From: Diadema setosum
Taxonomy: Eukaryota
Direction: 5' to 3'
Length of the DNA stretch: 64,000 nt
NCBI RefSeq assembly: GCF_964275005.1
Contig: NC_092698.1
Coordinates: 24,289,037-24,353,036 of the forward strand
A model generated the notes under the pieces. It saw only the letters and a program-made list of their open reading frames with translations, was not told where the DNA came from and made no database searches. Shown here in pieces: positions 11,557 through 53,175 of the stretch; positions within the stretch are counted from its first letter, which is position 1; every line of letters starts with the position of its first letter. The translations under genes and the position numbers were made by a program.

Positions 11557-12282
11557 TTAAAGGGATGATGGTATAGTATTGGTGGAGATGAGGATTGGGC
11601 TTTTAACTTTTTGCTAGATACCAAGAAATCACTCTTAAAATAGTTCAGAGCATATATCATTCTAAGAGGAGTTCAACGTTTATTTGATGAAAATCAGTTT
11701 TGGAATGGCTGAGACATCTAAAAAAAAAAATAAATAAAACAAAGAGATCGTATATATAGTAATAAAAGGTGAGTCCCACTTTTTATTAGGTCTTGTACCT
11801 GGGTGTGTGTGTGTGTGTGTTGCGTGGTTGTGGTGTGTGTTTCCGTGCCTTTACATTGATTGTATAATTGTAAGTTTAATGTATTGAGTGGCCCACATTC
11901 ATACAAGCTTGTCTTTTACGTGGGTCCCTCGATCTTTTCCTTTAACGCAATTATTTTGAACAATTAATTTCATAATATATGCATTTTTTGTTGTAAGATG
12001 ATACATGTCCGTTTTGTTTTCATTGAATTTGTGCAACAACAAACATGACGTGTTATTGGAAATAAAATTTCATTTGAACTGAACTGAATTGAATTGAATT
12101 AAGATCGCTCTGTTTTTGGATACCTCAGCCATTTCCAAACCAATTTTATTCATCAAATAAATCGTGAATTCCTCTTGGAATCACACGCTCTTTTATATTT
12201 CATAAGAGGTTTGTCGTTATCTCACCAAAGAATGCTAGAAACCTGAAGTTAGATCTCAACCAAAACTATACGATCCCTTTAA
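11557..12282. mobile_element. Foldback MITE (copy 1 of the family). It is interrupted in its centre by a ~370-bp insertion carrying a (GT)n run and a LINE 3' tail.
   Basis: The left half (ttaaagggatgatggtatagtattggtggagatgaggattgggcttttaactttttgc..) and the right half (..cctcagccatttccaaaccaattttattcatcaaataa...ctcaaccaaaactatacgatccctttaa) match the other copies. The 14-bp TIR is ttaaagggat.gta. Confidence 0.6.
11735..12103 (+). mobile_element. 5'-truncated 3'-end fragment of the LINE family, inserted into the MITE centre. Its tail reads ggaaataaaatttcatttgaactgaactgaattgaattgaatt.
   Basis: The 3' end resembles the 3' UTR and tail of the LINE at 15100-15180 (gcagaaataaaaactgaactgaactgaactgaa). 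The same GAAATAAA-(TGAAY)n tail is seen at about 43520-43567, 38270-38310 and 59860-59960. Confidence 0.4.
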
Positions 12283-12439
12283 TAGTAATAATTCTTGCGT
12301 TATACTCTTCTTGTATGCTTTGTATTTGCATGTTTTTTTCTTTGCACAGGATTCTGTTTTTGTTGGTTTGTTTGCTTGTGTCACTGACGTCATAATGGCT
12401 GTCTAGGACTGTCTGCACCCCCAGGAGCAGCTTCCTATC

Positions 12440-12468
12440 ATGGCCGCTGTAAAGAAAAATCTACTGGA
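12440..12468 (+). CDS. Speculative first coding exon: ATG GCC GCT GTA AAG AAA AAT CTA CTG GA | gtaagt (MAAVKKNLL-). It may be the 5' end of the PARP4-like gene.
   Basis: The ATG has a good Kozak context (a at -3, G at +4). A perfect GTAAGT donor follows at 12469. An acceptor (cccccag) lies 16 nt upstream, and a palindromic CRE, TGACGTCA, sits at 12385-12392. The phase (2 leftover nt) matches the candidate exon at 15638. Confidence 0.25.
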
Positions 12469-14066
12469 GTAAGTCTGGAAGGGACACACCTGTTCATTTA
12501 TTTTAAAGCATGTAGTTACACACAGATTGGTCCATTCATTGCCGCGAGCTTATTCACTTCCTTGTTTTTACGTAACCTTTTTGATTTCATTTAATACATG
12601 TTTATTCAATTACGAAACTCCTAATCATAATTGTATGAAGAAAAAAAAAGAGACAAATAAAAAATTCAGTACAATCATCAATCATTCAAAAGACAGCGTT
12701 GAATCTATAGGATACCAGGATCATTTCCAAAGAATGACATCAGTATATTCAAAATAAAAACCTGACCTTCCCGTCACACGCACACACACACACACGCACT
12801 CATACACTCACAAAGAAGTAAGCAGGCCCAATTTGTTCTTCGGACGGGAAAACCCTAAAACCACTACGCACTTGGTTGTATACAAAAGCCTGCATATCTT
12901 TGCAATACAGTGGACAGTGTGACGTATACAACAAATCTGCTGACTCGACCCGGATGTCGGTATGCTTTGTTGCTGTGTGTTATTACCCATTCTATACCGT
13001 ACACTAACAGTACAATTTGATCTGATTCCTTTATTCCACACCTTCGTGATCCTCAACAGTGATATATAGGCTGAGTTGTCACCTTTATGGCATAATTTTA
13101 CGTGTTGCAGACAGTAGCATACTCTGATCGTATAATTAATTCATTTTCATTTCATTTCATTTCATTTATTTCCACATTAAAAACAATCATTACATTTCAA
13201 GTCATAGTATAAACATATTCATTGTGGGGGACCAACTTAAAGCCTTTCAGGCTTGTTGGGAATAGGCCCCAAAGTAAATACAAGACTTTCTCAACTGAAA
13301 ATATATAGGTACAAAATATATAGAACACAAATGGTACACAATCAAAGCAGGCCGAAGAAGGAAAAAAGTAAAGAGTAAAATACTGGCAGAATATACAAAA
13401 CTATGTTGCTATTAAATACAAAAAGTGCGTCTAAAATTGCTTCTGAACTGCTGTAATGATTTGCAGTTTTTCAGTTCCTTTGGTAAAGTATTCCACAAAA
13501 TGGGACCTTGACAAAAAATTGTTGACTTGGCTAATTCGGTTCGGTAGAGGGGAGGATGAAAATTTTGTTGGTTTCTTGTATTATAAGAATGAATACTGAT
13601 GTTGAGATGAAAACATTGTTATAAGGGGGCTGGTAATGCACCAAATAAATACTGTTGCATAAAAATTCATATTTGAAAGCATATTATATCTTGAATTGAT
13701 GATATGTTATAAATTCAAGATATTCGAAATTATTCATAACAGTACATCATAATTTCTGTAGTCATCTCATTTCATTGATTTCATTTCAAACAAATTACCA
13801 ATTGCTATAGACATTTGAATACATATAATTACACTAAATCAGTTCAACAATCGTAATCAAGGACAGTAGCTTTGTATACGGCAGGAGCGGCGGAACGGGG
13901 AAGGGGGAAGGGCTGAGGGCTGGTGGGTTGCACCCCCCCCCCCCCACACACACATACACATTTTGGGCTCTTCAAAAAAAAAAATGGGCATGCACACACT
14001 CGCCCACACACTCTACACAATTCAACATTTGAACGTGTCTTCCTCAAGTATATCACATTTTTGTAA

Positions 14067-15180
14067 GCTGAAACAAGTATGTGTTGCATGTCTATGGAAA
14101 TATCTGGTCAGAAAAGCAACTTAAAATATATTTTATATCGACTGAAAAACTTCATTTCTCAAAATTCCCTGACTATTCTATACAATGCATTGATCTTACC
14201 ACATATCACATACTGCAATATCGTTTGGGGAAACTGTGGCTCAACTAAAATTAATCCAATTTTTACTCTCCAAAAACGTGCTGTACGTTTGATTACCAAT
14301 TCCCGTTACTTATCCCCATCCAATCCCCTATTTCATCAACTAAAAACATTGAAAATTGAGGATCTTCACACCTTTCAAACTGCTGTTTTTATGTATAAAT
14401 ATACATTTAATTGTCTTCCAAAAATTTTTGATGGCTTCTTCACTCCAAATTTCACCGTTCATTCATATCCAACACGTCAGTCGTCCGATTACCATCTCGA
14501 AAACCCCAGAATCATTTTAGCTCAAAAATCTTTAAAGCACAATGGACCAGATATTTGGAATTCTTTACCCCCTAATTTAAAACAACGTACGTCGTTGAAC
14601 ATTTTTAAACGAGAACTAAAAAACACCCTCATAATCCAGTATACTTCTGACACATAAAAATATTCATACCACCTGGTCAACAAACACCCTAAACAATGAG
14701 TTCACGGCCATAACTGAAGTAATATTCACCTCATCACACTGATACACAAAATAACACTCAACGTACAAACCAAGATTCATCCCAACACAATGCACACCGC
14801 ACTGCACCGCACGCCCTTCGCACAATTTACTTCCCACTCAGTGAGTGGCAAGATTTTCTTTATGTATCTCTTCGTTGTGCCCTTTGCACAATTACCCCCC
14901 ACTCAGTGAGTGGCAAGATTTTCTTTATGTATCTCTTTACCTGGGGCCATCTTCCTCGTCAAGCTTAGCTTATGATGATGGTCCCCTGCATTTCATTTTT
15001 ATCATTTCCTATTGCTTCCTTTCATATATGATATTCGTTCTTGAAAAAAAAAAAATGTATGTAAGATCCAAACGTTACGAATACTAGCTGTGTAAATGAC
15101 TATGTAAGTATTTTGTTGATTTGTGGATTTGTATTGATTTTGAAATGCAGAAATAAAAACTGAACTGAACTGAACTGAAA
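14067..15180 (+). mobile_element. 5'-truncated non-LTR retrotransposon (LINE). It carries the C-terminal tail of ORF2 (14067-14657), then a 3' UTR with a 58-bp internal duplication (14834-14940), and ends in gaaataaaaa(ctgaa)4.
   Basis: The ORF translation reads ...LYNALILPHITYCNIVWGNCGSTKINPIFTLQKRAVRLITNSRYLSPSNPLFHQLKTLKIEDLHTFQTAVFMYKYTFNCLPKIFDGFF...SLKHNGPDIWNSLPPNLKQRTSLNIFKRELKN. This is the conserved C-terminal domain that follows the reverse transcriptase in jockey/CR1/L2-type LINEs. An in-frame stop immediately upstream at 14064 marks the truncation point. Confidence 0.7.
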
Positions 15181-15970: not shown

Positions 15971-16366
15971 TTTGAAGGGATACTATAGAATTTCAGTTGA
16001 GATGGGACTTAAGGTTTCTAACGTTTTTTGATGATGATTTTTCAAGATAAAGAGAACCCTCTTATGAAGTATGGAAAGAAATATGGTTATAAGAAAAATT
16101 CGAAGTTTATTTGAGGAAAATTAGTTTTGAAATAGATGAGATGTCCGAAACAAAGCAATCCTGATAATATCGTTGTATTTTACTTTGTTTTTTGATATCT
16201 CAGGTATTTCTAGACCATTATATTCATCAAACCAACTTTGCATTCCTCTTAGAACTCTATGCTCTTTAACATTTCATACAGTGTTTTCTAGGTATCTCGC
16301 AAAAAAAAAAAGAGTTAAAAGCTTAATCCTCACGTCAACCAATGGGTTACTCTACCACCCCTTTAA
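15971..16366. mobile_element. Foldback MITE, a diverged copy of the B-variant.
   Basis: The body shares gataaagagaaccctcttatgaagtatggaaag ... ctttaacatttcatacagtgttttctaggtatctcgcaaaaaaa with the copies at 49289 and 52791. Internal halves are reverse complements of each other. Confidence 0.5.
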
Positions 16367-20384: not shown

Positions 20385-20648
20385 GTTGCCAAGGCCGAAG
20401 CCGTCCTTCATCAGCTTTGGCACCTTCTTCAGCGCCGACGTCGTCGAGACGATGAGAGGAAAGAAGGGGACGACGAAGATGAGGAGGACGAACAAGGGAG
20501 ACAAGAATCCTCGGATGCAGATCGCGAGGAGGAGGAGAAACTGGAGGAGTTGGAAAAGGAATTCTACGACTTGATACCGCACAAAGAAGACATGCGCAGT
20601 TCGCTGCTGCGCAAGGGAAACGTGGCGCTCAAACTGGATCTCTGTCAG
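20385..20648 (+). CDS. PARP4: PARP helical regulatory-domain exon encoding VAKAEAVLHQLWHLLQRRRRRDDERKEGDDEDEEDEQGRQESSDADREEEEKLEELEKEFYDLIPHKEDMRSSLLRKGNVALKLDLCQ.
   Basis: The EFYDLIPHK...LDLCQ stretch matches the PARP4 motif MMTEFYRLIPHKGTMPKEVNLGLLAKKADLCQ. Acceptor cctag|gtt, donor tgtcag|gttagg. 88 codons, phase 0-0. Confidence 0.8.
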
Positions 20649-21578
20649 GTTAGGGGAAAAGCAAGGGAGAAAACTGGGAATCAATCTAGAAGTATTGGCA
20701 AGTTTTCCTTTCATCTTATAATGTTCTGAAAGGAGACACCGCAAACTGTATAATGTGAAACGATTTGTTGTTTTTTTACAACAATCCGTATACACCCATG
20801 CGTATACACAAGAGAAATACATGCATGCACACAATGCAAATCTTAGTGCCATATTTTGATTTGCTGAAACTGCACCCGTCTTACACTCGAGACTTAGCGA
20901 ACAGTTCCAGCACACTCATTTTCATAAATTTATTGCTCTTGACATTGGGATTATACATGTGTTCAGCAAAAACCAAAACAAAACGGAAACAAAAAACAGT
21001 CTTACATTGATTTTTGATAAATAGGATAATGCCAGAGGAGAAGATTGCCAGAGGTTTCCTCAGCATCGGATATGAAATACCGATGTCATGGAATTCTCAA
21101 GTTTCGCATGAAAATGTTTTCACCGAATGTTGATCCGGGCGCAACCTCAAAGAAAAGTTTTGGTTTACCCGATGATTTCATCTTCTTATATATTTTCAGT
21201 TTGTTCGTGCATAACAAAAAAGAATAGGTTTTTCGTCGACAATCCAGCAGATGCATCCTTCACACTTTCTCCGAAAGTCATTTTTTGATACGTTATCAGG
21301 CAATGCTGCAATATGTAATAGGAGTGAGTATTCATTTCCAATTACGTACGTGCAATGTAAATATCCATAATATATCTACCAAAACTTAATCAAAAATTAG
21401 TGCTATGGAGATATCTTTACGAACATAACCACGTATGATTAGTCAGTGAAGCATTATCTTGGCAGTGTGCTCGGCAGTTTCAAAACAGTCTCATGATCCC
21501 TATATACTGTTGTTTCACAAGAGGAAAACAAAATGACGCATCACTAATGTGAATTTCGATGTACGGGTGCGGTTTTAG

Positions 21579-24890: not shown

Positions 24891-25397
24891 GTAAAATAAT
24901 TTTGGAATGATTTCTCACGGTCTAGTGCTATTTATCGGAAAGTCATAATGTGTTGACGAACACGAATTGATCGAAATGCATGCACACATACACATATAAT
25001 TTATATAGATATGCACACATGTAGGGCCTACATGAGTACATACTGTGTATTCTAACGAATGCATTCTGTACATGCACAGTAGTGTATCATTTATTTGAAT
25101 ATCAGATTCTATCCTACGATAGCGAATGATACATTGATATATCCATACTTAAAGGTACTATTTACTATTGGGAGCAGTGATTTTAAAAATGTTCGAATTA
25201 TCACATTTGATGCTTATGTGTAGGTCAGTTGTATCAAAACAGTCCACCATTTGTAAGAAAATTTCTCGGTAAAGTCGAAAATATAAGGAGATGCCACTAT
25301 TTTACTCAATAAACCATAAAATAATGTAGACGGTTTATTTTAGAAAGAACAATTATTATAACTATTGTTGACATTTTGTATAGCTAACAAAACTATA

Positions 25398-26859
25398 GGG
25401 TTTCCCGGTCAATTTCATACTTTTGTCATTCAAGTTCCTATTCCGAGCATTCGATTTCACACATTCTACGCTCGCAGCACTGAATCAGCAATCAAATTCA
25501 AAATCCGGTCATTCGAATTCACTATCCGAGCATTCAAATTCACTATCGGAGCATTCAAATTCACTATCGGAACATTCAAATTCACTATCGGAGCATTCAA
25601 ATTTAAGAGAGGAGCACGCATTTCATCAATGAGCATTCAAATTCATGTCAAGCTGGCGACGGAATCTCGTCGGTCATTCAAATTCGTGAATAGGCAACCA
25701 TGTTCCAAATAACTGCATTCAGTTTAAAAAGAAGTACTGAATTTAGTTAGTTTGGGGCCGTGTATGCATTTCTTTCTCATTTGGCTTTGAATATATTGGG
25801 ATTTATGATGATTATTTATTTTGCAGTAGAGGTCCACCTGTTTATTGACAATTTTGAACTCGCGCTTAGCAAATAGGAATATACAGGCACATGTCCCTCG
25901 GATTGGACATAAAATGGAGGTCCCACATGTAAGAGAGTCACAACTCATGCACGTAAAAGATCCCACTTCATTTATTCATCGCAAAGAGCAGAACATCTAA
26001 CTGGACCCCATATGGAAGACCAGCTTTTGCAGCTGAATATGGGTTATCCAGCCATCTTCTTTGATAGAAAATGAAACAAACAAACAAAAATTAGGCACTG
26101 ATGTATAGGCCTACAGACGAGCATAATACGGAGGGTTGGTTGACACTTTCGAGGAAAAAACCACAATTTCGACTATATTGACACTGATACATGAACATTT
26201 TATACGTGCTGTTTGTTGTGTATTGCTGTCTTATTGGTTTACTTTTGCGGGACTATGTGAGATCATTGTGTGTCAGTTTGTCTTAATTGTCATTATGTGG
26301 TTGGTGTTGGGGCGTTGTCAGCATGTAGTATCGTCAAGGAATATGATTACTAGTCGTTGTGTTGTTTTTATGCACTGCTGATTGGACATTGCAATTTGAA
26401 ATTTATTAAGATGAAAAACAAAGAATACATGAACAGAGAACAATGTAGAACATGTAAAATATCCTAATTACACTATATGCAAACATTCATTGGTTGTGTT
26501 GGCCCTTTTTCCTTTCTTAAAATTCTCCTCCATTTTCCTCGTTAAATTGATTGCACGAAGTAGGAACTTGATCGCCTAAAAATGAATTTGAACGCTCCAA
26601 ACAAGCTCATTGGGACTATCACGTGACTATCGCATGAATTTGAATGCACGAGTAGGAAAGTCGGTGCTCGCATTTTGAAATTGAGTGCCCAATCGTGAAT
26701 TTGATATCACGAAAACGAAATAGAACGCTCATAAATGAAATTGATCGCTCGGATTCTGAATTTGAATGCCCGAATATTTTCGCGTGCGTGCGCTGCGTGA
26801 ATTTGAATGCACATTAATGAATTTGAGTGACATAAGTATGAAATTGACCGGGAAAACCT
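25398..26859 (+). mobile_element. Non-autonomous TIR DNA transposon, copy A (~1.46 kb). It has ~35-bp TIRs (GGGTTTCCCGGTCAATTTCATACTTTTGTCA), arrays of subterminal GCATTCAAATTC-type repeats at both ends, and an embedded SINE-like module. It sits in an intron of the PARP4-like gene.
   Basis: The 5' end gggtttcccggtcaatttcatacttttgtcattcaa is the reverse complement of the 3' end ttgagtgacataagtatgaaattgaccgggaaaacc. It is flanked by TATA on both sides. Tandem cattcaaattcactatcggagc repeats lie at 25500-25620, and the inverted repeat gaatttgaatgc lies at 26630-26830. Confidence 0.7.
25905..26090 (+). mobile_element. SINE-like retroposon module (conserved 3' part ending in a (CAAA)n tail), embedded in TIR element copy A.
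   Basis: Shares ggacataaaat.gagg.ccca..tgt.agag.agtcacaactcatgc...ttcattcatcgcaaa with the standalone copy at 43700-43807. The same module occurs inverted in copy B (about 30700-30950), and there is a partial copy at 45405-45545. Confidence 0.5.
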
Positions 26860-27186
26860 ATATTATACTAATTAACATTTTTTACATTGGGTGTTTCTAT
26901 CCCTAACTGACATTTTAAAACTATTTTTAAGCACTGAAGCTAGGTTTTTGTTTCAGCTGCAAATGGTAAATACCCTGGCAATACCTTTTAATCAATCCCA
27001 TTGATATCATCAGGGGCAGATATTACGTAACCCAAATTTTACAGCAGGCTTACCAAAGGAGCATAGCTGCATATAATTATGACGTCCATTACCTACACTG
27101 TCTTGAAGCCGTCTCTTCTGTATATTTGCAAGTGCACCGCAAACAGGAAAAGTTTTCTTTTACCGAAACTTTTTCGTCCCTTGCAG

Positions 27187-28324: not shown

Positions 28325-28644
28325 GTATACCCAGGATGATAAGATAGAAGAAGGAAAGAAAAATGAAGGAGAATAAAAAAAAATACGAAAGGAGGATAAG
28401 GAGAAGAAGAAGAAAAAGAATGAGGAGGAGAAGGAGGAGGAAGAAGAAGAGGAGAGAAAAAAATAACCCTATGCTAATTATCTGTTTATAAGAAAGGCAC
28501 GTGCGTCTAGTCAGCATTACCAATAATGTATTGTATCGATTTGACAAGTGGCAGCAATACGAGAGTAGTTCATGTGCGTTCAGTGTGTAGGCTTAGAGAT
28601 ATTGTCATTTCCCCCTTGTCCGGCTACAGATAACAGTCTTACAG

Positions 28645-28854
28645 GTGTACCAGAGCACAAAGTCCGACGGTGACGTTTCGGAAGCCCGTTATGTGTTCCC
28701 GCTCGACGACCGGGCGGCCGTCTGCGGCTTCGAAGCCTACATCAACGGGAAACACGTGATTGGTCAGGTGAAGACCAAAGAAAGGGCAAAAGAGGAATTT
28801 CAGGCTGCAGTCCGAGCTGGTCATGGGGCTTACTTGATGCAAGAGGAAGCGTCG
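28645..28854 (+). CDS. PARP4: VIT-domain exon encoding VYQSTKSDGDVSEARYVFPLDDRAAVCGFEAYINGKHVIGQVKTKERAKEEFQAAVRAGHGAYLMQEEAS.
   Basis: Near-colinear with the PARP4 VIT domain KYIFPLDDKAAVCGFEAFINGKHIVGEIKEKEEAQQEYLEAVTQGHGAYLMSQDAP. Acceptor ttacag|gtg, donor tcg|gttagt. 70 codons. Confidence 0.85.
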
Positions 28855-29375
28855 GTTAGTATAATTGTTGATAATATTGTGGATGGATTTTCAAATATTT
28901 CAGAATGTTGGCCTGTTTGGCGCTCCATGGTACGAGTATGCTATTTGCAAAATGACGCCACTGTTTATGACGACATTTTCCAAATCGTGCACTATTCGTG
29001 AAAGGATATCTCAAAGTAACTGTGACATCACAAAGCAATTCTGACATTGCGCGCTGCATCTTAAAGTGACCCAAAGCAATTTATTGTCGTACATTTGAAT
29101 AGTATAATGCAATTACATTCTTGCGTTTATGATATATTATGACTCCTGTCTTTTAGTTTTTTGTCTATTTCCCTCTCTATATATACATTTACAGAGGGAA
29201 AGACAGGGGAAGGGAGAGAGAGAGAAAGTGCAAATTATCAGAATCATCTCTCCATCATGTTCATAGAAGTTGCTATGTATATACTCTAGTGGCGTTCTTC
29301 TGTCCAGGGGTTATATTGAACACACAATAAGATGAATAGCAGATTTAAGCTCTTCTTCGATCGCTGTATGGACAG

Positions 29376-29564
29376 AACGTCTTCTCCGTGAGCATCGGCA
29401 ACCTGCCCTCCCTCGCCACCGTGGTCATCCAGATCACGTATGTCACCGAGCTCGGGGCGGAGGACGATCACGCGGTCTTCTCCCTGCTCGGCAGCGTGGC
29501 CCCGTGGATACGAAAGGAGATCCAAGGCAGTCAGTTGACCGCTGACCAGCAGGCGGTCTCCGGA
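29376..29564 (+). CDS. PARP4: VIT-domain exon encoding NVFSVSIGNLPSLATVVIQITYVTELGAEDDHAVFSLLGSVAPWIRKEIQGSQLTADQQAVSG.
   Basis: Matches PARP4 DVFTVSVGNLPPKAKVLIKITYITELSILGTVGVFFMPATVAPW. Acceptor ggacag|aac, donor gga|gtgagt. 63 codons. Confidence 0.8.
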
Positions 29565-29922
29565 GTGAGTGGGCGGGAGAATGAGAGGTGAATGCACTTT
29601 ACGTTATTCCTCAGACATTCTTGGCAAGTTCCAGCTCTGAACATAACCAATAGCAACCACACGTCTATCAGGGACCAGCTGAAGAACAGCCATTTGCTGA
29701 AGCAGGTTCCGTGCTAAAATAAGATAAAATAAGCTGAACTGTCTTCTTGATCTATTCGCTCATCGCAGTATTTACATAACCATGAGCAATTCATAATTTT
29801 GATCTCACTTGTATGCCGTAATTAATGCGTGGTGTCTTATCAATACTAGTTTCTATATGATTCCAGAAGTGACAGCCTGTTGTTTCACGAGTGGTCAGCA
29901 TGAGATTTGTAATAATAATATA

Positions 29923-31390: not shown

Positions 31391-31477
<87 letters not shown>

Positions 31478-34186: not shown

Positions 34187-34376
34187 GTATGTCTTCATTC
34201 CACTGCCTGGCGATCGACATGGTGTTAAAGACAAGGATTTAATAGATAGATACAAATGATTTTGTAAGACTCAATGATGGAATTCTGGTTAAAAAAAAAG
34301 ATAGGTGATATCTTTTGTTTCTACCCAGGTGATCAGATGATTGTGAATGATACGTTTGAATCTGAGCAATAGGTTG

Positions 34377-34772: not shown

Positions 34773-34982
34773 GCATGATATTAGTTGCCAAAATCAAGTA
34801 TTCTGTCAGCTGTAACTTGAAAGTGTTAAATGATGACAGTGGCATTTTCAGTAGATTCAACATAGCACTATGTGTTGGTACAGGTTTTCATTGATTCATA
34901 GGTGGTAAACTTATATTCCTCTGCCTTGTTGATTCATATATAATGTATTCATCTTGTATTCCCACGTCTCCTACTGTGAAAG

Positions 34983-35253
34983 ATTTTACCGAGGTTTTCC
35001 CGAGCGTGGTGCGCAACAATCGCTGCAATATTGACGAGGCCGTGGACTTCATAGAAAGAAGTTCGTCATCTGTGGGCGGCGGCGGATCGGAAGCGTGGCG
35101 CCCTCTTCGTTCCCTTTCGCTGCTGCCGCCGGCGAAGAACAGGACGCGTAACGTCTTCCTCGTGTCGGACGGTCATCTGACGAACGAGAAGCTCACGTTG
35201 CGCGTCGCCGCCGATCATCGACACGAGAACAGGATTTTCACGTTTGGCGTGAG
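34983..35253 (+). CDS. PARP4: vWA-domain exon encoding (D)FTEVFPSVVRNNRCNIDEAVDFIERSSSSVGGGGSEAWRPLRSLSLLPPAKNRTRNVFLVSDGHLTNEKLTLRVAADHRHENRIFTFGV(R/S).
   Basis: Matches PARP4 ...RYLSLLYPARGSRNILLVSDGHLQDESLTLQLVKRSRPHTRLFACGIG. Acceptor gtgaaag|at, donor gtgag|gtgaga. Anchored by the ORF 34943 frame. Confidence 0.8.
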
Positions 35254-35365
35254 GTGAGAATCCACCAAATACTTCATCTTGATTTCTATCATTCTCTTCT
35301 CCCTCCCCATCTTTCCAGTCGTTCACCCTGTTTTCTCTCTGTTTCACTTTCTTCCTCTGTTACAG

Positions 35366-35465
35366 TTCAACTGGGAATCGTCATCTGTTACGTGCCTTAG
35401 CAGACGTCAGTGGAGGGGCCTTTGACTTGTTTGAAGGGAAATTCAAGTCAAAATGGGAAGGCAAG
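35366..35465 (+). CDS. PARP4: vWA-domain exon encoding (S)STGNRHLLRALADVSGGAFDLFEGKFKSKWEGK.
   Basis: Matches PARP4 GSTANRHVLRILSQCGAGVFEYFNAKSKHSWRKQ. Acceptor ctgttacag|t, donor gcaag|gtatgg. Confidence 0.8.
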
Positions 35466-36290
35466 GTATGGCAAGAATTACTGCAAGCAACATGATTTTT
35501 TTGTTATTGTTTTTAACATGCTGGTTTCGAGACATACAAATAAAGACGCGTATAAGATCGAATTCTGTTTACCCTCCAGTAAATTGCAACATTTGCATAC
35601 GCATTGGTCTTTTTCCAAGGCCCTCTGGCTGCTGTTATCGCTGACTGTTGTGAGAGAAGAGTTAGATAACAAATGACATGTTGGCGATAGTATAACGACC
35701 ATCTGCTTGTATTCGACGACAGAGTATCAACGCATTCAACGCCCCCCCCCCCTTTTTTTTTGTCTATATAGTAACTTTGTCAAGACAACTAGACAACTGA
35801 TAGGGGGAGGAATGCATTACTGATCTCTGCGAATACGGTTTGGGATGCCCCATTCCGACCAGAAACATTCTGCTGATAAGGGATTGTGTCATTATAGGCC
35901 GACAATATCCATATACTAGCCGATTTGGATGTTTTGTTGCTCTGACTAACCTCTACCATGTCTACAGTCACATTATTGTCGCTCCATACAGAAGATGAAT
36001 TATTCTACTTGAGATTCTATGCAGTGGAAACATATCGTAATGCATTTGATAAGACACTGTACTATCAAAACAGTCTTGGTTCAAATCTCACAAAGTGTGA
36101 AATCTTTAAACAATACCTTTTTTGACAATTTCATTCATTTTAACCTTGGTGTGTCTGTCTCAAATTGAAAATTCATTTTAGTTCAAATAAGTTCAGTTCA
36201 AAGTGATTCAATGTTCTTACAAGGCTGTCCTGGATAAAGAATCTCATTATTGGAGGATGATTTTTGCTTTTGCTTCCGGGACCATGAAAG

Positions 36291-37726: not shown

Positions 37727-38388
37727 GTAAGAAACTGAGTGTAAATAACTGAATAATAAATACACGATTTTTTAATTCCTTCGCGAAATTGCTTACCTCT
37801 TGTCGCACAGGCTAGGTCAAGCCTTACTCATGACTAATCACACCTTTTCAATATACCAATTATATGTGCTATTAAAAAGAAATCGCGTACACTTTCCTGT
37901 TCACTTGTAAAGCAAATGCATTAATGATTATGAAACGCATTCAACCCCAACTACCGACTAGTTCCTATAAGCATTTCTTTTATGTAGCTCCACCATATTT
38001 TACAAAATTATTTTGGAATATATTGGAAGGGGATGGTAATAGATTTGAGTATTATAACACAACAATAATCTTATGTAATTCTCTTTTTTAACGGACCTAA
38101 GCTTTGGGATCGTTGTTTACTCAAAGATAACAATGTGTTGTCGATTCACCTCGACATCATTGTATTTAGTTTTGTAGCTATACACTTTTTTATGATTTGG
38201 ATTGTACGATGATGATTTGATATTGTTTGTCCAGTGATATGTATTGTATTTGGTTTTGTCGCGAGATGTGAAAAATAAATTCAATTCAATTGAATTTAAT
38301 TCGATTCAATGAGATGAGCATTGCTTTTTTATCAGTCTAAAAGTAAGCAGTCTGGCTGCGTATATCATTGTTTGTTTTATTAATTCAG

Positions 38389-38571
38389 ATGATACACCGC
38401 TTAGCAGCCCGAGCCCTGGTTCGCGAGTGGGAGATCGGATCCTTTGATCGCGATCACATGGCCCACGAGACACGCATGTATGATCTCAAGCCATTTCTGA
38501 CCGAGCTCAGTATCGCGCTATCGATAGTCACACCCTTTACCAGCTTTGTCGCGGTCGAGGAGCGAGACAGT
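38389..38571 (+). CDS. PARP4: Exon encoding MIHRLAARALVREWEIGSFDRDHMAHETRMYDLKPFLTELSIALSIVTPFTSFVAVEERDS.
   Basis: Matches PARP4 MIHKLAARALIRDYEDGILHENETSHEMKKQTLKSLIIKLSKENSLITQFTSFVAVEKRD. Acceptor taattcag|atg, donor agt|gtaagt. Confidence 0.85.
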
Positions 38572-39489
38572 GTAAGTTCAGCACCAGTCTAGACGAGTCG
38601 TATACAATATGTCTGAAAGTTGGAGAGATTATGAATACAGTTCTATTTTGATCTTTGAGAACATTTTGTCATGATTGAACGAAAACTTTCGTCTCTTTTT
38701 TTTGATATTTCATTGCTCGAAAATGACGTGAACAAAACAGACGATACAAGAGTCCTGTCATTTCATCAATTTCCAATAGTGCCAAATGGCAAAATACCAT
38801 TATTTCAATCGAAATAAGTTCTTTCGTAGATGAAGTAAAATAAAGTATCTATGTATGACAACTGTGGCAACCTAAACCTATAGACACATTTGGATCAAAA
38901 TGATACTTTTTCATGACTCTTTTTTTTTTTATTTAGGGATATTTTTATTGGATGCAAAAGACTGCAATTTGTCATCATCACTCACAAAAGGCTTCTTTTA
39001 TTAATGCAAGTACATTATGGATAGCTCTCCATTCGCCCCATTCTATCAGCAACTTGTTCTTTTGCACATGCAGTATAATGTCGATTAATCTTGTTCCTAT
39101 GCTACTTAAATATCAGTATATACCTTGAGTGTAGTGCAGCCGTATTGGCTGATTTTACATCGGACAAGAGCAAGGAAAGCTTCAGGAACAACCTTTGACA
39201 ATAAAGACCTGCATAAGAAATATTATATTGTTCATCAGCCTTCGGATGTGTCTATATAAAAAAGTGAAAATATAGTATTTTCTCACGAGCAAACTTAACA
39301 AAATGTGGGTGTTTTTTCTTTCTTAACTTTCTTCATTTTAAGTGCTGTACGTTATTCCGAAGGTTCGATAATCCACAATAAGGAAAAGGGATCTTTATTC
39401 TTAAGGTTGCTTACTTCGAAAAAAAAGGAAAAAATGAAAGGTGCGTGCAAATGAACCTTTGAAATAACGAACTTTATTTCGTTTATGAA

Positions 39490-39885
39490 TTAAAGGGATG
39501 GTACAGTATTGGTGGAGATGAGAATTGGGCTTTTAACTTTTTGCGAGATACCAAGAACACACTTATGATATAGTCCAGAGCATACCATTTTAAGAGGAAT
39601 TCAAAGTTTATTTGATGAAAATCGGGTTTGGAATGACTGAAACATCCAAAAACAAAGTAAAACAAACGATCGTAATAAAGTGTGGGTCCCACACTTCATT
39701 AGAATCGCTCTTTTTTGGATATCTCAGTCATTTCAAAACCAATTTTCATCAAATAAACATTGAATTCCTCATATAATTACATGCTCTTTCATATTTCATA
39801 AGGGGTTTCTCATTATCTCACCAAAAAAAAAAAAATGTCAGAAACCTGAACTTAGGTCTCAACCAAAACTATACGATCCCTTTAA
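39490..39885. mobile_element. Foldback MITE (A-variant), complete.
   Basis: Same TIRs and palindromic body as the copy at 34377. Confidence 0.7.
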
Positions 39886-42417: not shown

Positions 42418-43569
42418 GTAAGACACTTCATGTTGTATTGATGATAAAGTAGAGAATCATTTCCAGGGGCCAATGAGGCCACAGTACGCAAATGAAATCT
42501 CAGCAAATCATCACGTTGCTATAGTCGATATAACTTCGTTTGTGACAGGCATGCACAAACCCTCCCAGTCTCTTACAGAGATTGTAACGTAGGCTTACGA
42601 GGGGAATATGATGTATATTGTCGCAGTTGAGACTACCATTTAAGATTCCACATCACTTTTATTATCTAGGATACCCTTGAAGCAAACTCTCCCACACCTG
42701 TAGCAAAGCTCCAAGTGTCCAGTTTGACGTTCGTTTGATCCTTGGTGCATTCAATTTCATGTTCACGACATGGTTCAAGGCGGTGATCCAAAAGCCGGTG
42801 ATATGGCCTTCTTTCTCACATACTGACTTGATTACCTTTTTTCCTCTTTGAAGAATAAATTGTATTCTTTTTAGTGGATGTCTGCTGCCATCTACGCTAT
42901 CGCCCAAAGCGTCAAAGACTTGAATTTCTGTCTTACTCCAGTTCATACGTCCCTTCATTTCCTTGCTTTTCTCCTTTCAGGCGTTACAATATCACTTTTT
43001 TTTCTCCACAACTATCATCTGTTTCTCTTGACATGCTTCTGTCGGAGATCGCTGTCTCTGTTGTGCATTTTCGTTTGCTATTTTGTCTTCTGTTTGTTAG
43101 TCTTGTCCATTCCGTTTTGTCCCGTACAACCTCTTCTTCAGTAGTTGTTTCGTTGTCTAGTCTTTTTCTATGTTTGTTCGCGTCTATGAAAGTAAATGTA
43201 TCTTTTTCTGAATCTAATTCTCAGTGGGCTTCCAGACTTCTTCTTCTTTTTTTTTTTCCTTTTGTATTTATGATGCTTCAATTAATCTTCCCACTGATGT
43301 TATTTTTCCAGAGGGGCCCACATTCTACAAGCTCTGTCTTTTTAGTGGGTCTCTCCATTTTTCGCACTTTAAGCAAAGTTATACATGTACTTCATTTCGA
43401 TCACTTCTGTTTCTTTTTTTTACAACAATGTATAATTACTATAAGGTCCTCAATGTTGTACATTCTTTTCAATATATAATGTTCTGTTTACCTTATTCTC
43501 TGTTGTCAAAAGAAGTGTAACTTATGTTTTGTCGGAAAATGAAATAAACTTTGAATTGAATTGAATTAT

Positions 43570-43966: not shown

Positions 43967-45430
43967 TCAAAATCTTTTTCTTCTCGAGTCACTACACAAG
44001 TCCTGTCCAGTGCAGAGCGCAGGATCTGGCTTTGGTGTTGAAAGTCTCCAGATCATTGACAGTGCATGGCTCTGGTAGGAGGGGGCAGACCAAAAGATGT
44101 TGCATTGTCTGATCCTGCCCGCAGTTGCAAGCAGTTTCTCCATCCCTATTGTAGCCCCATTTCTGCATGAGGACTTTGCATCGTCCTGTTCCTGCCATAG
44201 GCGATTCAGACATGACCAGGTGGGCCATGCCTCACTTGAACCCGGAGGGAGGGATTCACTTGGTCCATAGGAGAGCTTATGCGTCACAGACTGGAGGTGG
44301 TTGGACCATAGGGTAATCCTTCGACCGTGGGCGGTGCCATCAAGGGATTCGGTTGAATGGAGAAAACTGCGTCTGGATTTGAGTCTCTTTTTAGCAGGTT
44401 CACGATTGTAGAATGGGTGGCGAGGGTTAACTTCTTGCTTGGTTTTCTCCATCTGTGCTGGGACCTCTCGCCTGATGTGTGGTGGGGCAATACCACACAG
44501 TAAGTAAAGGTCATCTACTCTTGTTGGTCGCAGACATCCAGAGATAGCTCTGCAAGCTGCATTCAGGACTGGGTCGATCTTTGCAGCATGGGATGACCTA
44601 CACCAGACAGGGGCTGCATACTCGGCAGTGGAGAAGCATAGAGCAAGAGCTGTGGTGCGGATGGTTTTGGCATCTGTTCCCCATCTTGTATTAGCAAGCT
44701 TCTTCAATATGCTGTTCCTTGCTCCAGCTTTTGCCTTTGTCTTGGCAATGTGCTCCTTGTCAGTAAGGGAACGATCCAGTGTGACACCTAGATAGATCGG
44801 CTTATTGGTGTGTTTAAGCCATTTTCCATACCATCTGACCCTAAACAAGTTGTCGGTTAGCATCTCTGTTCTTAAGGTGGAAGACGCTAAGTTGAGTCTT
44901 CTCAGGATTTGCACGTAGGTGATTTGCGGCATAGTAAGGAGTTAGACCTGCCAGAGCATCACTGAGTGCTTTTTCCACCTCTTCAAAGGATTGCTTCTGT
45001 GAGGCAATGCAGAGATCATCAGCATACAGGTAGCTCCTTGTACTTGGATGGATTGGTTGGTCATTCGTGTAGACGTTGAAAAGAAGCGGGGCAAGGACGC
45101 TTCCTTGCGGGAGACCGTTTTTCTGTCTCCGCCATTTGCTGCGGGTACCATTCAGATTCACGTAGAACCGCCGGTTTGAAAGCAGGTTCTGGATCAACTG
45201 TGTCAGCTTGACATCCTTGGTCATCTCAAAGACTTTCCTTGTAAGAATCCTATAGTTCACTGTATCGTAGGCCGCAGAGAGGTCAACAAAAGCTGCTCCA
45301 GTTATCAGCCCTTCCTCAAACCCATCTTCGATGTACTGTGTGAGATTCAACAGTTGGCCAGTACAGGATTTTCCTGGCCTGAAGCCTGCCTGCTCGGGAA
45401 TGAGGAGCTCATCTACAAAGGGGGCGATTC
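43967..45430 (-). mobile_element. 5'-truncated, frameshifted non-LTR retrotransposon (LINE). It carries reverse transcriptase plus the C-terminal CCHC region and is a pseudogene.
   Basis: ORF 44841-45350(-) contains RT motifs GLPQGSVLAPLLFNVYTNDQP and YADDLCIAS. ORF 43967-44932(-) continues with ...RVRWYGKWLKHTNKPIYLGVTLDRSLT.... The C-terminal motif CNCGQDQTMQHLLVCPLLPEPC lies in a different frame (43992-44228), so the frame has shifted. Confidence 0.75.
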
Positions 45431-47335: not shown

Positions 47336-47374
<39 letters not shown>

Positions 47375-47678: not shown

Positions 47679-47712
<34 letters not shown>

Positions 47713-47742
47713 TATAATATATTACTTTTTTTTTTTACCAAG

Positions 47743-48491
47743 GTATCCTCATTACAGACGAGGCCACGCAAGTGCCAGTGACACCTATGATACCACGGCC
47801 CAAACCAACGCCCAAACCACTTCCCACACCACTTACTGAGTTGGATGACGAGATTGCTCGCCTTCGATCCATGGCGATTGACATGTCGATAGATATGGAT
47901 TTAGATTATTTGAAAACCAATAGTCTAAAGATGGACACACGTAAACGGGCAGTGAGAAAACGGGGATTCGCACTGGGGTTGCCGACATTTTCTTTCTGGA
48001 AATCAGAAAAGAAAGAGAAAGAGAAGCCGAAGCCAATGAAGAAGCAACGTGAAATTCCCGAAAGTTTTCGAGATATGACTGTTGCCAGTGAATTGAGCGA
48101 ACGAGGGGATAGGCTTCACGATCTGCAGGAGAAATCCGACGACCTTGCTGCCAGCGCCGCGCAATTCAGCTCCTCTACCAGGAGAATCAAATCTGGGCTA
48201 AATTGGCGGAGTTGGCTTCCTTCATTTGGCTCAGGAGAGGCGGCGCCACCACCACTAGTACCATCGCGTGGATACGGGCCCCCTTCCCCCGGATATGCAG
48301 AGCCAAAGCGATTACCAGGGGCTGTGCCACCAGCGCCACCACCAGCAGGTGGATTGCCACCGCCACAGCCGGAGCAACTCATGAAGAGATCGGCCAAGCA
48401 ACCGCCACCACCCCCTTCCCCCGAATTTGTAGAGTCAACATATTTTATAGCGCAGGGGGGTGATGACATCCCCGCCGCGATGATATCGCCG

Positions 48492-48522
<31 letters not shown>

Positions 48523-49028
48523 CTCTATTAACTTCTTCTACACAGAGACAACTACCACATTCGTTGATAGCAGAACGAGATGACGAAGGCCGCAGAGAAA
48601 AATTACCCCGTGATAGATTAGGTGATGTACCGTGTGCAGGGGGTCTTCCAACACTAGGCATAAGATATATGTCAAACAGATATATGTCAGACTATGAGGA
48701 GAGTGAGGATGAGGAGGAGGAGTACTGGGAACCCATTGAGGAGTATGAGAAGCCTACGCGAGAACCAGCTGAGAGTGGATTGCCCTCACGAGAAGCTCTT
48801 GGCGCTCCAAGGAAGTTAGCAACAGGAGACATGATGTTTGCTGCTTTGGATGATGGGGTATCCACCGCCGATGATTTATATCGTCTGGAAGACTTCTGCT
48901 TTATAGGACAGGGAGAACTCAAGAGGAAGCCAGAGCGAGAGGTGTCCGCGCTCCGGTTTCCCTTTACTGTCCGCCGAAAGCAGCTGAGCGCTGAGGACGT
49001 CAACAGGATTTTACACCGGCAGAGCAGT
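47743..49028 (+). CDS. Large coding exon of about 428 codons. An R-SNARE (synaptobrevin-like) coiled-coil motif at the N-terminal end is followed by proline-rich and acidic low-complexity regions. The acceptor may instead be at 47758.
   Basis: The continuous frame is ...IPRPKPTPKPLPTPLTELDDEIARLRSM...FRDMTVASELSERGDRLHDLQEKSDDLAASAAQFSSSTRRIKSGLNWRS...PPPPPPPPPPPP...YEESEDEEEEYWEPIEEYEK...RILHRQSS. The SNARE motif aligns with VAMP2 [44 protein letters not shown]. Donor agt|gtaaga at 49029. The ORF-track entry 47772-49046 uses a GTG as pseudo-start; the frame is open upstream to the acceptors. Confidence 0.6.
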
Positions 49029-49058
49029 GTAAGAACCTTTGGATGATATACGAGGGGA

Positions 49059-49096
<38 letters not shown>

Positions 49097-49288: not shown

Positions 49289-49680
49289 TTAAAGGGACTG
49301 TACAGTACTGGTTGAGGTGGGGATTCAGGTTTATAACATTCCTGAGTGAGATAATGAGAAACCTCTTATGAAATATGAAAGAGCATGTAATTTTAAGAAG
49401 GATTCAACATTTATTTCATGAAAATTGGTTTTCAAATGGCTGCGATATCCAAAAAAGTGATAATAATAAAAGGCGACAGGCCACGCCTTTTATTAGGATC
49501 TCTTTGTTTCACCTTGTTTTTGGATATCTCAGCCATTTCAAAACCGATTTTCATCAAATAAACTTTTGATACCCCTTAGAATTGCATGCTCTTTGACATC
49601 TCATAGAGTGGTTTCTGAAAATCTCGCAAAACGTTAAAAGCTAAATCCTCACCTCGACCAGAACTGTACAGTCCCTTTAA
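49289..49680. mobile_element. Foldback MITE (B-variant), complete. The GGGGCGGATCC element 49775-49935 lies immediately downstream.
   Basis: TIRs ttaaagggactgtacag / ctgtacagtccctttaa. The palindromic body contains gagataatgagaaacctcttatgaaatatgaaagagcatg. Confidence 0.65.
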
Positions 49681-50882: not shown

Positions 50883-51028
50883 GTGAGTATCTCCTGTTTT
50901 TTCCCGTTATTATGTATTCTACCTGTTGTCCGGTATTATTGGATGGTAATGGGAAATTATAATATTCATCAACCGGAGCACAGGAATCGTCTAAAGCAGA
51001 TGGTTATCGGTAGTCCAGAGTTTACCAG

Positions 51029-51072
<44 letters not shown>

Positions 51073-51287
51073 ACACAAACACACACACAGACACAAGCAC
51101 ACAAACATATTATACACAACTCAATAGTATATGTAACCGAAGAAGTTTCCAGACATTGGATGTGTGTGTGTGTTTTTGTAATAAAGCCTCTGCTTGGCGA
51201 TGATTATGACATGCGACACAGAATGTTGGTCATTCTGTAAATGAAATGATGTATGATTTTTTTTTTAATTTGATTTTTAACTTTTAG

Positions 51288-51562
51288 ATGATAAGAGCAC
51301 AGCGGCGGATGAACCTCTTCACAAGATACTGCTTGGTACCCTGTTGGTCATGCTCTTCCTCGCCGAGTTAATCACCGCTATTCGTCGTCAGCGGAGGCTG
51401 GGTGCCGTCGGTGAGCTACACGATCTCGAGCCGACGATCTCGGCGAGTCTTGAAAAGGGAGAGCAGTGGATGGAAAGCCTGGAGCCACCGCTGGTAGAAT
51501 TGGCGCGGAGGCTTATAGACGACTTGCCTTCTGCAGAACAGCACATAGTGCTCCAGTGCTAA
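51288..51562 (+). CDS. Terminal coding exon: (N)DKSTAADEPLHKILLGTLLVMLFLAELITAIRRQRRLGAVGELHDLEPTISASLEKGEQWMESLEPPLVELARRLIDDLPSAEQHIVLQC*. It carries a predicted transmembrane helix followed by a basic stop-transfer sequence.
   Basis: Acceptor cttttag|at. The phase is continuous with the 50882 exon (a + at). A hydrophobic 19-mer, ILLGTLLVMLFLAELITAI, is followed by RRQRR. Stop TAA at 51560-51562. Confidence 0.45.
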
Positions 51563-52790
51563 ATTTCTACCGTCACCTAAAAAAAAATATATATATATAT
51601 ATCTCTTGTACGGCGAAATTCACTGTGTTACGTCACGTATACTAGTGTGTTTCTGTGTTTGACGTCACCCAAACTTTGTGCACGCAGCAGCTGTCGCAAC
51701 ATGCAACACCATAACAACATCTCTATCATTTCGAAAAAACAAAACAAAACTGCGGACTACTTCCTGTCAGAGTGCGCCAGGCTTGGACCTATAGGGAAAT
51801 CTCCCAACGACTTGACCAACCCAGGCCGTGACACCGTGGGATGGTTACGGCAGTTTCGTGACGCGGTGTATAGCAGCTTTATAGCAGTGTATTAATCTTA
51901 GAAAAAAATATTAAATGTCTTCATACAGAATAAGGAGAAGATTTTGAAGAAAAAAAAATATGACAAATTTTGACCATGAGTCAATTGGGTCCTAAATGTG
52001 GACACTGCCCAAATTCGACTGTCCCTTCACGATACGTTTTACTGCCAATATGCCTTTCATAATAGTAAAGCCTAAAAAACCTTTTCCAATAATGGACTGG
52101 TTTAGACGATTACAAATTAGTACATACCAATTCAATCTTAAACCCCATTGGAGTATAAGAAAATTGCACAAAATCATTTCTTCATTTCTCACTTTTGTTT
52201 AGTCGTATATGATGACCAGTTGAGGGTAACTTTATAAGGATCATCGCCAGTTTAATAATTAGTAATGCCGTCAGTTTGAGAGTATTCTTGAGAGTTTACA
52301 CAATAGGTTCGCTTTTTAATCTGTTGTGATGTTATGATTCATGTATTGATCATAATAAGATGAAGATTTCGTTTCCTCGTCGTCATAACGGCTTTGACTT
52401 AGAACCGTTTGACACCATTAGCCGATTGGAATCATACCCCCTCAAACCAAAGTGATGTGGAATGGGCAGAACATCCCACGATAGTCAGATCCTTGCATCA
52501 TTTTACGCCTGTGAAATTTTCTTCAGCCATAGACTGAAACCTAACAAATTATCTGTTACAATTCATCAGGCATGTTTATAGAGGGAATTTAGAAGTAATT
52601 CTCCAATCAACCAATTGAATATTTTAAATACTTGTCGATCACCGGATGAATATCAAGTGAAAACTTTAGTGTATTGGATTAGTCGATTGCGATCCATTAT
52701 TCTTTTGTAATTAAGAGTCAGCTCTGATTTGCTGTTCTGTATATCTTATCTTTGCATTTGTCTTATGATGGTTTGAACCTCTTTGTATGC

Positions 52791-53175
52791 TTTAAGGAAT
52801 CGTGTAATTTTAGTTGAGACCTAATTTCAGGTTTCTAGCATTTTTGTTTTCGATGAGATAATGAGAACCCTCTTATGAAATGTGAAATATTTCAAAGATC
52901 ATTTCATCAAAGATTTACTTGAAGAAACTTACTTTTGAAATGGCCGAGATATCAAAACCAGAGCGTTCCTGATATAAGGTGGGACCCACCTTTTATTGCG
53001 ATCGCTTTGTTTTACACTTTTTTTTTTTAGATGTCTAAGCCATTCCGAAAACCGATTTTCATCGATTATACTTTGAATCCCTCTTAGAATGGTATGCTCT
53101 GTACTTTTTCATAAGTGGTTTCTTGGTATCTCGCAAAAAGTGAAAAGTTCAATCCTCATCTCCACCATTACTACT
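52791..53175. mobile_element. Foldback MITE (B-variant), a 3'-degraded copy.
   Basis: ctttaaggaatcgtgtaattttagttgagacctaatttcaggtttctagca...gatgagataatgagaaccctcttatgaaatgtgaaat... shares the body of the 49289 copy. Confidence 0.55.

Follow-up and report, generated by a model that had tools for sequence, protein, structure and literature searches.

The element family and its copies

The window, a 64-kb stretch of Diadema setosum DNA, carries a PARP4-like gene, a large open exon whose assignment to a gene is uncertain, and six dispersed copies of a short repeated element, designated c1 to c6. The copies were found both by BLAST and with an nhmmer profile built from the copies themselves (E-values of about 1e-94 to 1e-125), and there are no others in the 64 kb. 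They are uniform in size, 385-396 bp if c1 is counted without its insert, and have sharp common boundaries, the flanks being mutually unrelated beyond a TTAA. The consensus is 393 bp long including both TTAAs, its GC content is 34%, and the family occupies about 4% of the window. Stop-free stretches do not exceed 59-75 codons and vary between copies, and the consensus has no conserved ORF. The elements are non-coding and, being multi-copy, small and TIR-bearing, constitute a MITE family. The initial annotation of this DNA had described such a family, of about 400 bp and with at least six copies, and the description stands, the number being exactly six.

The coordinates given here include the flanking TTAA. 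Copy c1 spans positions 11557-12282 on the plus strand and is split into two parts. The left part (11557-11789; profile positions 2-216, E = 2.5e-58) consists of the left TTAA, the left arm and the central stem-loop, and the right part (12098-12282; profile positions 210-396, E = 1.3e-51) consists of the right arm and the right TTAA. Copies c3 (34378-34771, E = 6.5e-120) and c4 (39490-39885, E = 3.9e-125) are also on the plus strand. The remaining three are on the minus strand: c2 at 15972-16366 (E = 5e-94), c5 at 49289-49680 (E = 4e-116) and c6 at 52792 to about 53196 (alignment 53176-52793, envelope 53196-52791, E = 1.9e-109). The initial annotation had found the right places, but its limits for c3 were off by one nucleotide at each end and it stopped c6 at 53175, short of the end of the envelope.

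The two parts of c1 are separated by 308 bp of unrelated sequence (11790-12097), inserted at the apex of the palindrome and outside the family. The insert begins with (TG)n and terminates in (TGAAY)n. Apart from microsatellites, its only similarity elsewhere in the window is to 69 bp at 43311-43376. We reject the idea that it is an inner segment of a longer parent element: the other five copies do not contain it, it has the (TGAAY)n tail and it does not share the symmetry of the arms.

The VWA domain of the PARP4-like gene is interrupted by the intron in which copy c3 lies. By itself, the exon at 33979-34239 covers positions 2-51 of the VWA_3 profile; when it is joined to two further exons, 34895-35254 and 35283-35492, the match extends over positions 2-152 of 155 (E = 1.2e-18). 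Several copies had been assigned to introns of this gene. The assignment is borne out for c3 and is plausible for c2 and c4, but c5 and c6 lie downstream of the large open exon.

The copies differ from the consensus by a K2P distance of 0.06-0.28 (6-28%) and are therefore old relics. The most diverged is c2 (0.28), in which the central stem is deleted and one flanking TTAA is mutated to TTGA. Copies c3 and c4 are 92.6% identical, and the flanks of c4 are unrelated. In c5 the TIR is perfect over 18 nt (TTAAAGGGACTGTACAGT) and the hairpin is the best paired of all copies; c5 represents a separate subfamily. The left-arm terminus of c6 (53176-53196) is degenerate, and at its right end the AGG lacks its A. 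We infer at least two or three subfamilies or master lineages, consisting of c3/c4/c1/c6, c5 and c2.

Ends, target site and superfamily

Similarity between copies stops exactly at the TTAA on both sides. The elements terminate in 5'-AGGGA...TCCCT-3', and the outermost 5'-AG...CT-3' (RR..YY) is present in the consensus and at all intact ends. TTAA is followed by AGG at 9 of the 12 ends, the remaining three being point-mutated or degenerate; likewise, AGGGA or AGGGG is found at nine ends, the others being the left end of c3 (AGGAT), the right end of c6, which lacks the A, and the degenerate left end of c6. The common TIRs of the initial annotation are confirmed by the pattern TTAAAGGGAYNGTAYAGTNNTGGT, which matches six ends exactly, compared with none expected from 100 shuffles. 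No direct repeat beyond the TTAA was found between the two 20-nt flanks of any copy. Outside the family, the window contains no other TTAAAGGRR...YYCCTTTAA pair, and unpaired sites occur at about chance level.

Kolobok transposons have TTAA-specific 4-bp TSDs and, unlike piggyBac, 5'-RR/YY-3' termini (PMC9587614). The T2-MITEs of Xenopus combine a TTAA target with a terminal AGGRR and are presumed to be non-autonomous Kolobok elements; the TIR of the autonomous XKol-A5 is AGGGGAACTATC (PMC6004289). Insect Kolobok MITEs have an average length of about 386 bp (PMC5199201). Because the TTAA flanks and the AGGGA/TCCCT ends match this published signature, the family is probably a non-autonomous, cut-and-paste MITE of the Kolobok superfamily, of the Xenopus 'T2' type, and the six copies are old, immobile relics, the superfamily call being made from the end signatures, a 4-nt target and a 5-nt terminal motif. 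We infer a duplication of the TTAA on insertion. No autonomous partner or transposase ORF was found in the window, where none of the ORFs of at least 110 aa is transposase-like, reverse-transcriptase fragments apart.

An origin from piggyBac is improbable, even though TTAA is likewise the insertion site of piggyBac and is duplicated by it, and intact copies are flanked by TTAA at both ends. Marine invertebrates commonly carry piggyBac MITEs, such as the coral CMITEs. A relation to piggyBac is described for those MITEs of corals that have a TTAA TSD (PMC2872659). However, piggyBac requires a terminal 5'-CC[C/T]T...[A/G]GG-3' for transposition (PMC2872659), which is absent here. The AGGGA/TCCCT ends have the opposite polarity, and it is by such a difference that Kolobok has been separated from piggyBac (PMC9587614).

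The family could also be read as a Stowaway-like MITE of the Tc1/mariner type that duplicates TA and has a TIR starting from AAGGGAT, in which case the outer T and A would belong to a preferred, TTAA-like target. Every flanking TTAA does contain TA, and the inner motif TACAGT may resemble Tc1 termini. On this reading, 9 of the 12 ends would have to carry an unvarying T...A beyond the TSD, whereas a TTAA duplication needs no extra assumption. Furthermore, both arms of every copy conserve the 10 bases that lie outward of TACAGT, so that the motif is internal. We consider a Tc1/mariner origin very unlikely.

The palindromic body

As the initial annotation had proposed, the symmetry runs beyond the TIRs through the entire body of the element. 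When aligned with its reverse complement, every copy shows 67-74% identity along almost the entire element. The two arms within a copy are 63-76% identical, so that all six copies are imperfect whole-body palindromes, with a short central stem-loop, GTGGGTCCCAC, between the halves. The terminal arms of c4 and c5 are 29-44 nt long and 86-89% complementary; those of c5 measure 44 nt (89%) and are followed by inner arms of 89 nt (82%). Tandem arrays were not detected by TRF inside any copy, nor were direct-repeat families within c3, c4 or c5.

The palindrome is asymmetric in a consistent way. Left arms resemble each other at 74-91% and right arms at 65-93%, compared with 61-76% between left and right arms, and in an arm phylogeny left arms group with left and right arms with right. 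Each copy scores far better against the profile in one orientation than in the other (e.g. 412 vs 225 bits). By this measure c1, c3 and c4 are forward and c2, c5 and c6 are reverse. Since all copies have the same arm asymmetry, it must already have been present in the master element. The two sequence variants, A and B, of the initial annotation are actually the left and right arms of a single asymmetric element in opposite orientations; the arm asymmetry, together with the opposite orientation of the copies, gave rise to the misreading that is corrected here.

Each copy is predicted to fold into one long hairpin, in agreement with the initial annotation. The DNA folds have energies of -63 to -111 kcal/mol, and z is about -8 to -18 (-8.3, -13.0 and -18.3 in three folds); the values are -87 kcal/mol and -13 for c4, and -111 kcal/mol and -18 for c5. 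The hairpin is common to all copies, with 132 pairs, 90% of the cells being paired, compared with 37-50% after sliding of the partner. Ten pairs carry changes in both members, vs 4.2 ± 1.5 in shuffles, and mirrored private substitutions number 17 vs 7.0 ± 1.6 (maximum 12) over all 265 arm re-pairings, both tests using six sequences, whose common descent can imitate covariation. The mirrored substitutions fall mostly in c5, within its first 40 nt, and in the central stem.

Persistence of the palindromy would be accounted for if the hairpin itself were selected, all or some of the elements being exapted as intronic hairpin-RNA (siRNA or miRNA) precursors or needing a single-strand hairpin for movement. 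The excess of compensated and mirrored changes, the RNA folds, at -94 to -193 kcal/mol, the position of c3 inside a transcribed intron and weak, structure-only matches to long-hairpin miRNA models point in this direction. These matches, the best of which are to MIR8562 and MIR821, reach just 45-57 bits vs gathering thresholds of 211-249 and reflect a generic long-hairpin likeness; at the gathering thresholds Rfam has no match in the window. Furthermore, the arms are only 63-76% identical, an arm is hardly closer to its own partner (70%) than to the arms of other copies (69%), and the mirrored changes concentrate where a transposase would bind. Selection of the hairpin is thus highly improbable. 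It is also very doubtful that the palindrome, instead of being simply inherited, is kept up actively, through conversion between the arms or through selection, either because the element moves or acts by way of a hairpin, as a single-strand DNA intermediate, or because intronic copies serve as hairpin-RNA precursors for small-RNA pathways. If this were true, the family would represent a branch of Kolobok MITEs, of 'foldback' type, whose structural requirement is undescribed for the superfamily. In the favoured reading, the capacity to form a hairpin is a side effect of the history of the element rather than an established function.

Drosophila FB elements and related long-TIR foldback transposons have long inverted-repeat ends that fold back, with arms of kilobases that contain tandem sub-repeats. 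The elements described here likewise have foldback ends, but are about 390 bp long and contain no tandem repeats. A hAT-derived or FB-like foldback element would share the long inverted arms and the foldback structure, but is scarcely credible, because there is no 8-bp (or other) direct repeat outside the TTAA, the termini are not of the hAT YARNG type and the arms lack the sub-repeats that define FB. The hAT/Tc1 derivation of the initial annotation is not supported, since the 8-bp duplication is missing and the intact ends, TTAA followed by AGGGA, carry the Kolobok/T2 signature.

Comparison with known elements

Among the closest descriptions are those of the Xenopus T2 MITEs (such as Xmix/T2-A1 and T2-C; PMC6004289). 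Like the family described here, these have TTAA and a terminal AGGRR (here AGGGA), are a few hundred bp long and non-coding, comprise many subfamilies and are often found in or near genes. Sequence likeness is recognised only in the terminal motif, however; the inverted symmetry of the whole element is a property of the present family, and the host is not a frog. Kolobok-N2_XT, a 496-bp MITE of Xenopus tropicalis that is assigned to Kolobok, also has TIRs and palindromic internal repeats, but it differs in length and has reported enhancer associations, and it is likened here by description (PMC12676858).

The solo LTDRs of KolobokP, which occur in bivalves and six other animal phyla, are comparable in size, a few hundred bp, and in being non-autonomous Kolobok-lineage units capable of excision on their own. 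They are about 450 or 660 bp long, however, with TIRs of at most 18 bp and without a whole-body palindrome (PMC9587614). In the KolobokP consensus file, 12-13-mer strings from the TIRs and arms are absent, save for chance 12-mer matches in unrelated context. The coral CMITEs, which are piggyBac elements, share the TTAA flanks, the small size and the intronic copies, but are about 100 bp long, are not palindromic and have a CCYT terminal motif that is lacking here (PMC2872659). These coral MITEs, of opposite terminal polarity, were the subject of the only transposon paper retrieved by a literature search on TTAAAGGRR and TTAAAGGG (PMC2872659).

Wider searches gave no relatives. A 23-mer from the right arm had no matches in metagenome, genome and viral contig collections, and a degenerate 24-nt TIR had three chance matches in metagenome and genome contigs, in bacterial coding sequence and with no profile match. 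Two other features of the window, a LINE ORF and a VIT exon, do have homologues. The LINE ORF is 85% identical at the protein level and 96% at the nucleotide level to a TARA metagenome scaffold and 70% identical to a sequence of Branchiostoma belcheri; the best match of the VIT exon is 66% identical. The MITE is absent from ten contigs (about 130 kb) obtained through these homologues, which contain neither an empty site nor added copies. A search with a 424-aa exon gave no matches, the list of candidates being saturated by low-complexity words.

Proposed origin

The matched ends would be bound by a Kolobok DDE transposase that acted in trans, excised the unit and inserted it at a TTAA, and repair of the 4-nt staggered cut would then duplicate the TTAA. 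The palindromic body may have had a single origin, in which one end of the transposon was duplicated in inverted orientation when repair involved fold-back or a switch of template. Divergence of about 30% between the arms, with a duplication of 15 nt in the left one, would have accumulated before the present copies arose in bursts, and at least two or three master lineages (c3/c4/c1/c6; c5; c2) may have produced these. Mirroring of terminal changes in both arms would be expected if both ends have to fit one transposase.

Implications

With a consensus and a superfamily assignment available, the repeat can be masked before gene prediction. Imperfect hairpins of 190 bp in introns could in principle affect splicing, RNA editing and small-RNA production, which is a generic property of such structures. 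It is likewise a generic property of long palindromes that they can be fragile, and the sole interrupted copy, c1, is broken exactly at the apex. For the host, the family suggests past activity of a Kolobok transposase.

Copies of the element and their polarity

Exactly six elements were recovered in the window, both by BLAST of the copies and by a profile HMM made from an alignment of them, and inspection of all six intervals bore out the number and places claimed in the initial annotation. Including the flanking TTAA, copies c1 (11557-12282), c3 (34378-34771) and c4 (39490-39885) lie on the plus strand, and c2 (15972-16366), c5 (49289-49680) and c6 (52792 to about 53196, its far terminus being degenerate) lie on the minus strand. 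In these orientations all six can be aligned end to end. The full-length copies have profile E-values of 1e-94 to 1e-125, and beyond them the profile search of the 64-kb window gave one fragment with E = 0.05 and no solo arms. The copies take up about 4% of the window. A degenerate 24-nt pattern of the terminal inverted repeat (TIR) matched 6 ends exactly, compared to 0 expected from 100 dinucleotide shuffles.

The element has a polarity. Every copy scores much higher against the profile one way than the other, as exemplified by c4 (412 bits versus 225 bits). When each copy was cut at the central GGGTCCC and the 12 resulting arms were aligned, left arms were 74-91% identical to each other and right arms 65-93%, whereas left and right arms shared only 61-76% identity. 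The left arm is about 15 nt longer, the extra length being a duplicated AAAACAAAG. Because the arms cluster left with left and right with right, and because the copies have polarity, the two sequence variants proposed earlier, A (...gaaaatcaggtttgaaat...) and B (...gagataatgagaaacctcttatgaaat...), are in fact the left and right arms of a single asymmetric element, read from oppositely oriented copies. The divergence of the arms is older than the amplification of the six copies.

There is genuine substructure among the copies. C3 and c4 share 92.6% identity, c1 and c6 group with them at 81-87%, and c5 and c2 are outliers at 71-76%. The K2P distances of the copies to the 393-bp family consensus range from 0.06 to 0.28; the copies are old relics. 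In c1, a 308-bp stretch of unrelated DNA (11790-12097) interrupts the hairpin precisely at its apex. It begins with (TG)n, ends with (TGAAY)n, a repeat also seen in arrays at 13140-13172 and 59889-59960, and shares 69 bp (83%) with 43311-43376. This insert is probably a truncated retroposon or a retroposon fragment.

Termini, target site and superfamily

With the copies oriented alike, TTAA is followed by AGGGA or AGGGG at 9 of the 12 ends. In the three exceptions, one end of c2 has TTGA for TTAA, one end of c6 lacks a base and its other end is degenerate. Apart from these, the left end of c3 retains an intact TTAA, but has AGGAT in place of AGGRR. The similarity between copies ends exactly at TTAA, and beyond it the 20-nt left and right flanks share no direct repeat in any of the six copies. 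Because cut-and-paste transposition must leave a duplication and nothing beyond TTAA is duplicated, the duplicated target would be the whole TTAA or, on a less parsimonious reading, the TA inside it.

Kolobok elements make TTAA-specific 4-bp duplications and, unlike piggyBac, have 5'-RR...YY-3' termini (PMC9587614). The T2 MITEs of Xenopus, regarded as non-autonomous Kolobok elements, are defined by a TTAA target and terminal AGGRR, and AGGGGAACTATC is an example of the TIRs found on autonomous Xenopus Kolobok copies (PMC6004289). The ends of the present family, TTAA / AGGGAT...ATCCCT / TTAA, carry both the Kolobok and the T2 terminal signatures. At 385 bp the family is close to the average of about 386 bp for insect Kolobok MITEs (PMC5199201), and a palindromic body has also been documented for the Kolobok MITE Kolobok-N2_XT (PMC12676858). 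The best-supported identity, as judged from sequence features, is thus a T2-type MITE of the Kolobok superfamily, whose palindromic body would have been duplicated anciently and is now imperfect.

A piggyBac MITE would also insert at TTAA, but the terminal CC[C/T]T motif required by piggyBac and its MITEs (PMC2872659) is not matched by AGGGAT...ATCCCT. The initial annotation was right in calling the elements foldback MITEs, but erred in assigning them to hAT/Tc1; the TTAA and AGGGA ends are the Kolobok/T2 signature, and the lack of an 8-bp duplication rules out hAT. A Drosophila-type FB element is ruled out by arms without tandem sub-repeats.

Relatives of the family were sought with two patterns in metagenome and prokaryote-genome collections, and with one of the two in a viral collection; the only three matches were chance ones inside bacterial genes. 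The KolobokP consensus file contained no match. Ten contigs (about 130 kb), reached through homologues of the LINE and VIT sequences of the window, contained neither the MITE nor an empty site or autonomous partner. The family is possibly already catalogued.

Palindrome and hairpin

Aligned with its own reverse complement, every copy shows 67-74% identity across nearly its whole length, and c3, c4 and c5 each fold, as single-stranded DNA, into one long hairpin (dG of -63, -87 and -111 kcal/mol, with z-scores against shuffles of -8.3, -13.0 and -18.3, respectively), in agreement with the whole-body palindrome described initially. All six copies keep the hairpin, whose consensus has 132 pairs; 90% of its cells are paired, compared to 37-50% after shifting the partner by 1-3 columns. 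Ten pairs are altered on both sides, versus 4.2 +/- 1.5 in shuffles. Mirrored private substitutions, in which the same change occurs in both arms of one copy, number 17, versus 7.0 +/- 1.6 (maximum 12) over all 265 re-pairings of arms among copies.

This excess of symmetric changes is modest and is concentrated in the central stem and in the first ~40 nt, above all those of c5, which has the same 18 nt at both termini. Most simply, the two putative transposase-binding ends would have co-evolved in separate master lineages, and some conversion between arms may have contributed. Overall, an arm is 70% identical to its partner and hardly less, 69%, to the arms of other copies, and therefore there is no good evidence of selection on the whole stem. 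With only six sequences, shared descent may also have had effects. No conserved ORF runs across the copies, and none of them matches an Rfam family at gathering thresholds. The sub-threshold matches to MIR8562 and MIR821, long-hairpin plant miRNA models (45-57 bits versus thresholds of 211-249), reflect generic hairpin shape only.

The whole-length inverted homology surrounding a tiny central stem-loop suggests that the palindrome originated once, when one transposon end was duplicated in inverted orientation. The arms would have diverged next, ahead of the bursts that produced the six copies. A Kolobok DDE transposase, supplied in trans, would recognize the matched termini and insert the unit at TTAA.

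Other repeats in the window

Two more palindromic elements are present. A foldback element unrelated to the MITE family (2490-3217; 728 bp, 85% identical to its own reverse complement) has ends TA|CATTTCAGCATAACTCAATA and mirrored 21-nt tandem pairs at 2633-2672 and 3034-3073. The other (58815-59443; 629 bp, 71% self-complementary) has ends AATAGGGAGTTTTCRCAAGC and mirror-image ORFs on both strands. A tandem duplication at 6275-7414 (period ~565 bp, two units 93-97% identical) contains a short palindrome (6674-6855), and a further dispersed family of about 250-390 bp occurs in both orientations at 25149-25394, 32564-32928 and 55773-56158 (67-79% identical).

A LINE (non-LTR retrotransposon) fragment at 43967-45350 on the minus strand (RVT_1, E 2e-20) is 96% identical over 1.1 kb of nucleotide sequence to TARA_SAMEA6030248_METAG-scaffold_155111 (ENA) and 83% identical to a TARA_SAMEA2591082 scaffold; among named protein relatives the best, at 70%, comes from Branchiostoma belcheri. 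These similarities hint at a marine animal host. A 196-codon open stretch at 14067-14654 (plus strand) reads like the C-terminal region of a non-LTR retrotransposon ORF2 and has no Pfam match at E <= 0.01.

Placement relative to the PARP4-like gene

The window is of metazoan origin. The PARP4-like gene on its plus strand comprises a weak PARP_reg match (20385-20726), two VIT matches (28597-28998, E 3e-20, and 29349-29588) and a VWA domain from 33979 onward. Exon 33979-34239 by itself matches positions 2-51 of the VWA_3 profile; once the stop-free stretches 34895-35254 and 35283-35492 are joined to it by splicing, the match extends over positions 2-152 of 155 (E 1.2e-18). Because the match continues across the spliced stretches on either side, c3 lies in an intron splitting the VWA domain. 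The earlier claim that several copies are in introns of this gene thus holds for c3; c4, 900 bp downstream of the last recognizable exon (38347-38589), is likely intronic, and c2 lies 5' of the PARP_reg exon.

C5 lies 245 bp beyond the stop closing a 442-codon open stretch (47718-49043, plus strand), which may be a separate gene. Besides long runs of proline, this stretch contains a synaptobrevin/R-SNARE-like motif (E 5e-7). No homologue was found, but low-complexity words had saturated the list of candidates, and the negative result therefore does not speak for absence.

A pair of 1.48-kb transposon-like repeats (25394-26866 and 29915-31394), 95% identical and in inverted orientation, flanks the two VIT-domain exons (28597-29588). 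Each repeat contains a 21-nt x 5.6 tandem array and has TIRs of ~250 bp that start with TATAGGKTTTCCCGGTCAATTTCATAC. Such an arrangement could favour inversion of the segment that carries these exons. The main value of the MITE family lies in repeat masking and in interpreting the intron content of the locus.
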